A DNA stretch of 47,011 nucleotides from a virus. Lineage: Duplodnaviria > Heunggongvirae > Uroviricota > Caudoviricetes. Positions 42,649 to 42,771 of this stretch are shown in pieces. A program made the translations under genes and the position numbers. Under the pieces are notes generated by a model, which saw only the letters and a program-made list of their open reading frames with translations, did not search any database and was not told the origin of the DNA. Location: IMG/VR virus record IMGVR_UViG_2534682294_000023; one strand, given 5' to 3'. Numbering within the stretch: the stretch's first letter is position 1; each line of letters opens with the position of its first letter.

Positions 42649-42771
42649 ATGCACGGTAATTCTGAAATGCAAAAAATCAACCAAACCAGCGCAATGCCTG
42701 AAAAAACTGACGTTCACTGGAGTGGTCGGTTTAGCGTTGCACCAATGCTCGATAGGATGTACCGTTTTTGA
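42649..42771 (+). pseudogene. dusA: Orphaned 5' fragment of dusA (tRNA-dihydrouridine synthase A), first about 35 codons
   Basis: MHGNSEMQKINQTSAMPEKTDVHWSGRFSVAPMLD matches the DusA N-terminus as I recall it, then diverges (RMYRF, stop) at about 42754. Confidence 0.7.

Follow-up and report, generated by a model that had tools for sequence, protein, structure and literature searches.

The window (the whole stretch of 47,011 nucleotides that was analysed) holds the beginning of dusA at 42649..42771 (+) but not the gene that should follow it, which raises the question of whether this is simply a damaged gene or the trace of an element that entered it. Our comparisons indicated that the fragment is the attL scar of a dusA-specific prophage remnant and not merely a broken gene. 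Codons 1-35 of E. coli dusA, with the translation MHGNSEMQKINQTSAMPEKTDVHWSGRFSVAPMLD, occupy 42649-42753 on the + strand; beyond them the frame reads five more codons of phage origin (RMYRF) before it ends in TGA at 42769-42771. The close relative NCCP 13946 (L002) has an uninterrupted dusA, and against this gene nucleotides 1-104 are identical and the divergence starts at nucleotide 105 (position 42753), where the base change is synonymous and codon 35 still reads Asp. For thousands of complete E. coli genomes in which the site is empty, the alignment ends at 42752, and PGAP labels the same 105 nt in identical genomes as “tRNA-dihydrouridine synthase, missing C-terminus”, a partial pseudogene. 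Judged from these sequence comparisons, the N-terminal match is far beyond chance. The original prediction, namely that the first 35 codons of dusA are present and that the frame then diverges and stops, is thereby borne out.

The DNA to the left of the orphan is native. The intergenic region 5′ of dusA (42288..42648, +) has 0 mismatches over 361 bp against the empty-site genome L002, and a terminator-like hairpin at 42325-42354 is the terminator of the preceding DUF2713 gene. The first codons had been described as present with their promoter. The entirely native 361 bp upstream agree with that description, but a simple sigma-70 consensus scan of 42250-42950 found no match on the + strand for a native dusA promoter; similarly, the scan gave no + strand match in the 88-bp spacer between int and dusA of EC4115. 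Failed scans of this kind weigh little either way, and we infer a promoter for the orphan without assigning it a location. A scan of the whole window with Rfam at the gathering cutoff returned no match.

The window is chromosomal DNA of the E. coli O157:H7 type. Positions 39196-47011 are 100% identical to O157:H7 FRIK944, and 268 complete genomes match positions 42300-47011 at 100% identity. The window in its full length is matched by no complete genome, as its junction between a Mu-like prophage and dinF is unique, and the right end of the element in this strain is for that reason extrapolated. Three features, namely the integrase, attR and the rebuilt dusA, are found beyond the window and were read in genomes that are identical over 7.8 kb (39196-47011), which the right end in this strain is expected to match.

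Attachment sites and the crossover

The break in dusA coincides with the end of a repeat. The 27-bp sequence TCGGTTTAGCGTTGCACCAATGCTCGA at 42726..42752 (+) recurs perfectly, in direct orientation, at attR of O157 genomes, where the second copy lies at L003 13102-13128 and L001 33732-33758, and it encodes (R)FSVAPMLD of DusA. In a four-way alignment, mEp460 supplied attP, the empty site attB, the window attL and EC4115 attR. Within this alignment, attL is composed of the left arm of attB and the right arm of attP, and attR of the left arm of attP and the right arm of attB, a pattern that, on the aligned sequences, is the signature of a single reciprocal site-specific exchange. The free phage mEp460 has the order int, a copy resembling the 5′ end of dusA, and then the sequence found from 42753 onward in the window, which constitutes an intact attP.

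Alignment with the other junction, which had been proposed as the way to define the att core, resolved the 27-bp repeat at 42726-42752, and the attP of free phages gave a strict core at 42745-42752. Three bases within the 27 bp differ, reading GCATTGCTCCTATGCTCGA in four free-phage attP and GCGTTGCACCAATGCTCGA in the host, and because of these differences the strict core is limited to ATGCTCGA (42745..42752, +), the only stretch at the break point that is common to host attB and to all examined free-phage attP. The crossover most likely occurred within ATGCTCGA, its exact bases being deduced from the alignment. A 7-base core published for phage 1720a-02 agrees with ATGCTCGA (PMC6328086).

The three variable bases also distinguish the two ends of integrated elements. 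The prophages of O111:H8 9662 and of four other strains follow the expected pattern, in which attR is phage-type and attL host-type at these bases. By contrast, attR of the O157 remnant is host-type at all three positions (GCGTTGCACCA), where all four free-phage attP and five other attR read GCATTGCTCCT; this host-type attR gives the perfect 27-bp repeat and retains Val30 of DusA instead of Ile. Such an attR is not predicted by one crossover with a standard attP; it could have come from an attP variant or from conversion between the repeats. A single alternative crossover in TCGGTTTAGC was also considered as a source of the host-type attR and was rejected, since attL would then have to be phage-type at these bases, which is not the case in the window. 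If the element were excised, the attP junction of the circle is predicted to read ...TTCTCGGTTTAGC...ATGCTCGATAGGATG....

The far junction and its integrase

In complete O157:H7 genomes such as EC4115 the remnant is 10.9 kb long, or 13.3 kb where ISEc8 has been inserted. The rest of the element in EC4115 and FRIK944 comprises lom, tail-fibre genes, three DUF1076 (NleG-type) genes, dinI and int. Its right end in both genomes is a gene for a 365-aa tyrosine integrase, divergent from dusA and separated from it by 88 bp. This integrase is intact in EC4115 and is split by ISEc8 in FRIK944; given this difference, the mobility of the remnant probably differs between otherwise identical O157 strains. 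The ISEc8 copy in the FRIK944 integrase, a member of the IS66 family, is located at L001 30425-32737.

The dusA gene beyond the integrase is intact, with 345 codons. It starts with MHDNHEAQKINQTSVMPEKTGVYWNSRFSVAPMLDWTD... and has eight amino-acid changes in its first 26 residues. Mismatches between the chimeric and native genes number 16 in the 77 nt before the repeat, 0 in the 27 nt within it and 1 in the 934 nt after it, and the first 77 nt of the rebuilt gene are phage-derived. The chimeric dusA is presumably expressed and active. The body of the element had been expected to extend rightwards past the window, with an integrase and an intact dusA with a substituted N-terminus beyond 47011 and a replacement 5′ end at the other junction. 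In EC4115 and FRIK944 the identical DNA does continue as a phage remnant from 42753, the integrase and the rebuilt gene are present, and the chimeric 5′ end carries the 16 nucleotide changes in 77 and the eight amino-acid changes before the repeat; for this strain the same arrangement is an extrapolation. By reference to these sequences, the integrase and dusA would lie ~5.3-7.5 kb past 47011 if the strain is EC4115-like, and ~2.4 kb further with ISEc8.

The integrase that we analysed is that of the identical-sequence genome EC4115, outside the window. It matches Pfam Phage_integrase (E=1e-20), and the residues R222, H306, R310, H332 and Y342 are invariant across 33 integrase homologues, with R310 adjoining R309 of the HxxR motif; the protein is therefore a tyrosine recombinase with an RHRH tetrad and a nucleophilic tyrosine. 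NCBIfam gave weak sub-threshold Xer and integron-integrase matches, and the mEp460 integrase carries the depositor's note “INT_Rci cd00796”. The EC4115 integrase is 98.4-100% identical to those of the free phages mEp460, mEp460_4F5, phiSTEC1575-Stx2k and 1720a-02, the value being 100% for mEp460_4F5 and phiSTEC1575-Stx2k and 99.5% for 1720a-02. Experiments have demonstrated that 1720a-02 integrates ~100 bp into dusA of Citrobacter rodentium and excises, and that the phage-encoded dusA′ restores the reading frame (PMC6328086). According to the same paper, its junctions, which are identical, hold the 21-bp motif.

These properties correspond to those of the dusA-associated integrase (DAI) family, in whose elements int lies next to the 5′ end of dusA, the element replaces this 5′ end and the native one stays behind at the far junction (PMC4482086). 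DAI elements are flanked by semi-conserved direct repeats with a 21-bp consensus in a conserved region of dusA, and the family is phylogenetically distinct, with the shufflon recombinase Rci as its closest characterised relative (PMC4482086). For related elements it has been demonstrated experimentally that they excise as a circular intermediate, which restores the native dusA (PMC4482086). In EC4115 and FRIK944, and by extrapolation in the strain of the window, int adjoins the 5′ end of dusA; the 5′ end has been replaced and the native orphan stands at the far junction; and the flanking repeats, 27 bp at 42726-42752 and in attR, lie in the conserved dusA region. The signature of a dusA-specific integrase named in the original prediction is thus supported, the far junction being read in identical genomes, with int divergent from a rebuilt dusA, a native orphan, att repeats and a near-identical integrase that targets dusA experimentally. 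NCCP 13946 represents an empty site with identical flanks, which may reflect ancestral absence.

A survey of integrase homologues, with one genome taken per species, covered 52 loci. Full-length dusA is divergent from the integrase and 88-230 bp from its start in 34 of the 52, and these loci span Enterobacterales, Vibrio, Shewanella, Idiomarina, Aeromonas, Algicola and one Hyphomicrobiales genome. The target encodes the conserved motif SVAPMLDW, and the site is recognisable in 33 other species. As a separate observation, integrase homologues with ~58-64% identity in Xenorhabdus, Serratia and Pseudomonas lundensis are divergent to genes other than dusA (L025, L026, L027, L029, L030 and L047, upstream of the integrase at 3001); by their N-termini, read by eye, they resemble a DEAD-box helicase, a 6-phosphogluconolactonase-like gene, upp and pyrD. 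The gene neighbourhoods suggest that the integrase family may have been retargeted to the 5′ ends of other genes.

Gene content and decay of the remnant

From 42753 rightwards the DNA is phage-derived, being 98% identical to the sequence directly right of attP in the free phage mEp460, and the window holds the left 4.26 kb of the lambdoid prophage remnant (42753..47011), which passes the window's right end. The first gene inside attL is a 178-aa phage ORF (42897..43433, +; phrog_4350), followed by a 57-aa phage ORF (43630..43803, +; phrog_2741). Neither ORF had matches in Pfam, NCBIfam or PADLOC, and PHROGs places both in families of unknown function. The two ORFs lie between attL and the leftward early operon and are conserved in mEp460 and in the O111 prophage; this position suggests that they are possible accessory genes expressed in the lysogen. 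Next is a gene for a PrtN-family small DNA-binding protein (43851..44159, −; PGAP start giving 43851-44132), which matches Pfam PF11112 (E=4e-23) and phrog_1300, “excisionase” (E=8e-40). Its mEp460 counterpart is annotated as an excisionase, and the protein at 43851-44159 is, on homology, a probable excisionase.

Several of the following genes record the decay of the prophage. A 3′-5′ exonuclease pseudogene without its N-terminus (44169..44528, −; PGAP and Pfam) has a deletion joint at 44521, and a SAM-dependent methyltransferase pseudogene (44821..45294, −) has an internal stop, whose counterpart in the O111:H8 9662 prophage is an intact gene. A hypothetical protein of the phage early region, 116 aa long (45291..45641, −; annotation of an identical genome and PHROGs) and a yfdR-like 5′-deoxynucleotidase with an HD domain (45632..46168, −; annotation of an identical genome and Pfam) precede a truncated yfdQ/DUF2303 gene, of which the C-terminal part is left (46296..46712, −). 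At the deletion joint 46714/46715 this gene abuts a C-terminal fragment of the tail-tip protein J (46700..47011, +; PGAP in FRIK944), which is cut by the window end.

Comparison with a more complete relative allowed the losses to be defined. O111:H8 9662 carries a ~45-kb near-complete lambdoid prophage at the identical junction, with repressor, cro, Q, lysis, terminase, head and tail genes and, as cargo next to int, the effectors EspM2, NleG and EspW. The part of the element in the window is 99.9% identical to this prophage apart from two deletion joints. At 44521, 1.46 kb has been lost and the exonuclease truncated; at 46714/46715, everything from inside yfdQ to inside J has been lost and the truncated yfdQ is fused to the C-terminal piece of J, so that the immunity, replication, lysis and head genes found between yfdQ and J in the O111 prophage are absent here. 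On account of these two joints, the O157 element is a decayed prophage and not an intact phage or a conjugative island. The original prediction was right that an element had integrated into dusA and silent on its being a deleted, largely dead prophage as opposed to an intact island. In another O157:H7 strain, PV15-279, the same attL and attR junctions are ~38 kb apart (NZ_AP018488.1 5173545-5211539), so that the serotype also includes an element that is much larger or has received an additional insertion.

Origin of the scar, earlier reports and distribution

We consider it nearly certain that, taken as a whole, these features reflect a lambdoid phage with a DAI integrase that integrated into dusA, rebuilt the gene and then decayed. 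A lambdoid phage encoding a dusA-specific tyrosine integrase of the DAI family would have inserted by site-specific recombination of its attP with attB at the ...SVAPMLD/W codons, ~100 nt into dusA. The attP would bring a phage version of the dusA 5′ end, preceded by an upstream region of its own, and because it does so, the exchange would have given two products. The attL product, in the window, consists of the native upstream region and the first 35 codons, orphaned and running into phage DNA with a stop after five codons; the attR product, outside the window, would fuse the phage-encoded 5′ end in frame to the rest of dusA and leave the gene whole. Decay followed, with one deletion from yfdQ to J taking the immunity, replication, lysis, head and most tail genes, and continued with a second, 1.5-kb deletion and several pseudogenes. 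Left over is the 10.9-kb remnant with tail-fibre genes, three NleG-type (DUF1076) effector genes, dinI, int and the PrtN-type excisionase.

The fragment might instead be the left end of an intact, inducible prophage or of a functional genomic island. Related complete phages use the same site, O111:H8 9662 has its near-complete 45-kb prophage at the same junction, the attL-attR spacing in O157:H7 PV15-279 is ~38 kb, and the right part of the element in this strain lies beyond the window. The decay is nevertheless visible within the window itself, in the truncated exonuclease, the internal stop of the methyltransferase and the yfdQ-J fusion at 46714/46715, and the immunity, replication, lysis and head genes are missing between yfdQ and J; because the yfdQ-J joint sits inside the window, an intact phage is refuted, and we regard an intact prophage or a functional island as very improbable. 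An occupant of another kind, such as an SGI1-related mobilisable island as in Vibrio or an integrative conjugative element, would fit the observation that dusA-specific integrases ride on very diverse islands (PMC4482086, PMC8409611). However, the recognisable genes are all lambdoid (PrtN/excisionase, exonuclease, yfdR, yfdQ, J, lom, tail fibre and dinI), and the window part and the proxy remainder together contain zero mobilisation or conjugation genes, which leaves such an element with hardly any probability. That the proxy genomes have a dusA 5′ end twice in one region could also be read as a local duplication or an illegitimate rearrangement of dusA that involved no integrase. Yet 16 of 77 nt are changed in the second copy, which fits the attP arm of the free phages, not the host gene; 662 genomes, of various serotypes, share the exact base of the break; and this break lies where a phage whose integrase has 99.5% identity was shown by experiment to integrate. 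The four-way att alignment refutes such a duplication, which we rate as the most remote of the readings considered.

With integration followed by decay as the preferred reading, the question arises of whether the 10.9-kb remnant, with its three NleG-type effector genes, is still active and excisable as an island and can be moved by resident lambdoid phages. The remnant keeps both att sites (as a perfect 27-bp repeat) and the PrtN-type excisionase, and in EC4115-like strains an intact integrase, but we think such activity unlikely. If the remnant were excisable, the host-type bases of attR would be a trace of past excision and re-integration or of conversion between the repeats, and the island could pass between strains, helped by the many resident lambdoid phages.

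The element and its mechanism are already known; the prediction was right, and the case is an ordinary one. In Farrugia et al. (2015), Supplementary Table S1 lists EC4115 NC_011353.1 5179273..5190127, of 10,855 bp, as a “phage remnant” (PMC4482086). That entry is the element described here, with 100% identity over the part in the window, and the left coordinate 5179273 corresponds to position 42753. The entry shares the int gene divergent from dusA, the replaced 5′ end, the orphan at the far junction and the semi-conserved direct repeats, and nothing differs in kind, although some O157 strains have ISEc8 inside int. The Stx2d phage 1720a-02 (KF030445) has the same attP arm and core and shares ~43% of the window part at 97% identity, but it is complete, inducible and toxin-converting, whereas the O157 element is a deleted remnant without stx. 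Phages mEp460 (NC_019716) and mEp460_4F5 are collinear with the window over the attP region, the 178-aa and 57-aa ORFs, PrtN/excisionase, exonuclease, yfdR and yfdQ, at 96-98% identity; unlike the remnant, mEp460 is a viable phage, and at three bases its attP departs from the host-type sequence of both O157 repeats. In the super-shedder O157:H7 strain SS17, phage region 21 is ~12 kb long, lies between yjbK (zur) and dusA and is absent from Sakai and EDL933 (PMC4321836). Its location and size agree with those of the element here; the SS17 paper does not include the replacement of the dusA 5′ end (PMC4321836), and SS17 is without a Mu-like prophage, one of which lies nearby in the window.

The same attL junction occurs in 662 of 5426 complete E. 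coli genomes, and an uninterrupted int-dusA′ junction in 726 of the 5426. Overall, ~12-13% of complete E. coli genomes (~1 in 8) carry a related element at dusA, and dusA is therefore a major landing site for phages, including Shiga-toxin phages. O157:H7 strains are polymorphic at this locus, which can serve as a marker: EC4115- and SS17-type strains have the element, and Sakai and EDL933 lack it (PMC4321836). For annotation, 42649-42771 is best described as the attL scar of a known remnant, with an intact dusA to be expected downstream; beyond that, the fragment has little import.

In addition, a Mu-like prophage occupies positions 1-39195 of the window, with its junction at 39195/39196, and includes the MuA gene at 35679-37769 (−) and the MuB gene at 34675-35607 (−). 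Its end (...GGTTACA) abuts dinF 391 nt into the gene, and this SOS-regulated efflux gene is split. The junction with dinF was present in 0 of the 5426 complete E. coli genomes; other strains carry related Mu-like prophages at other places.
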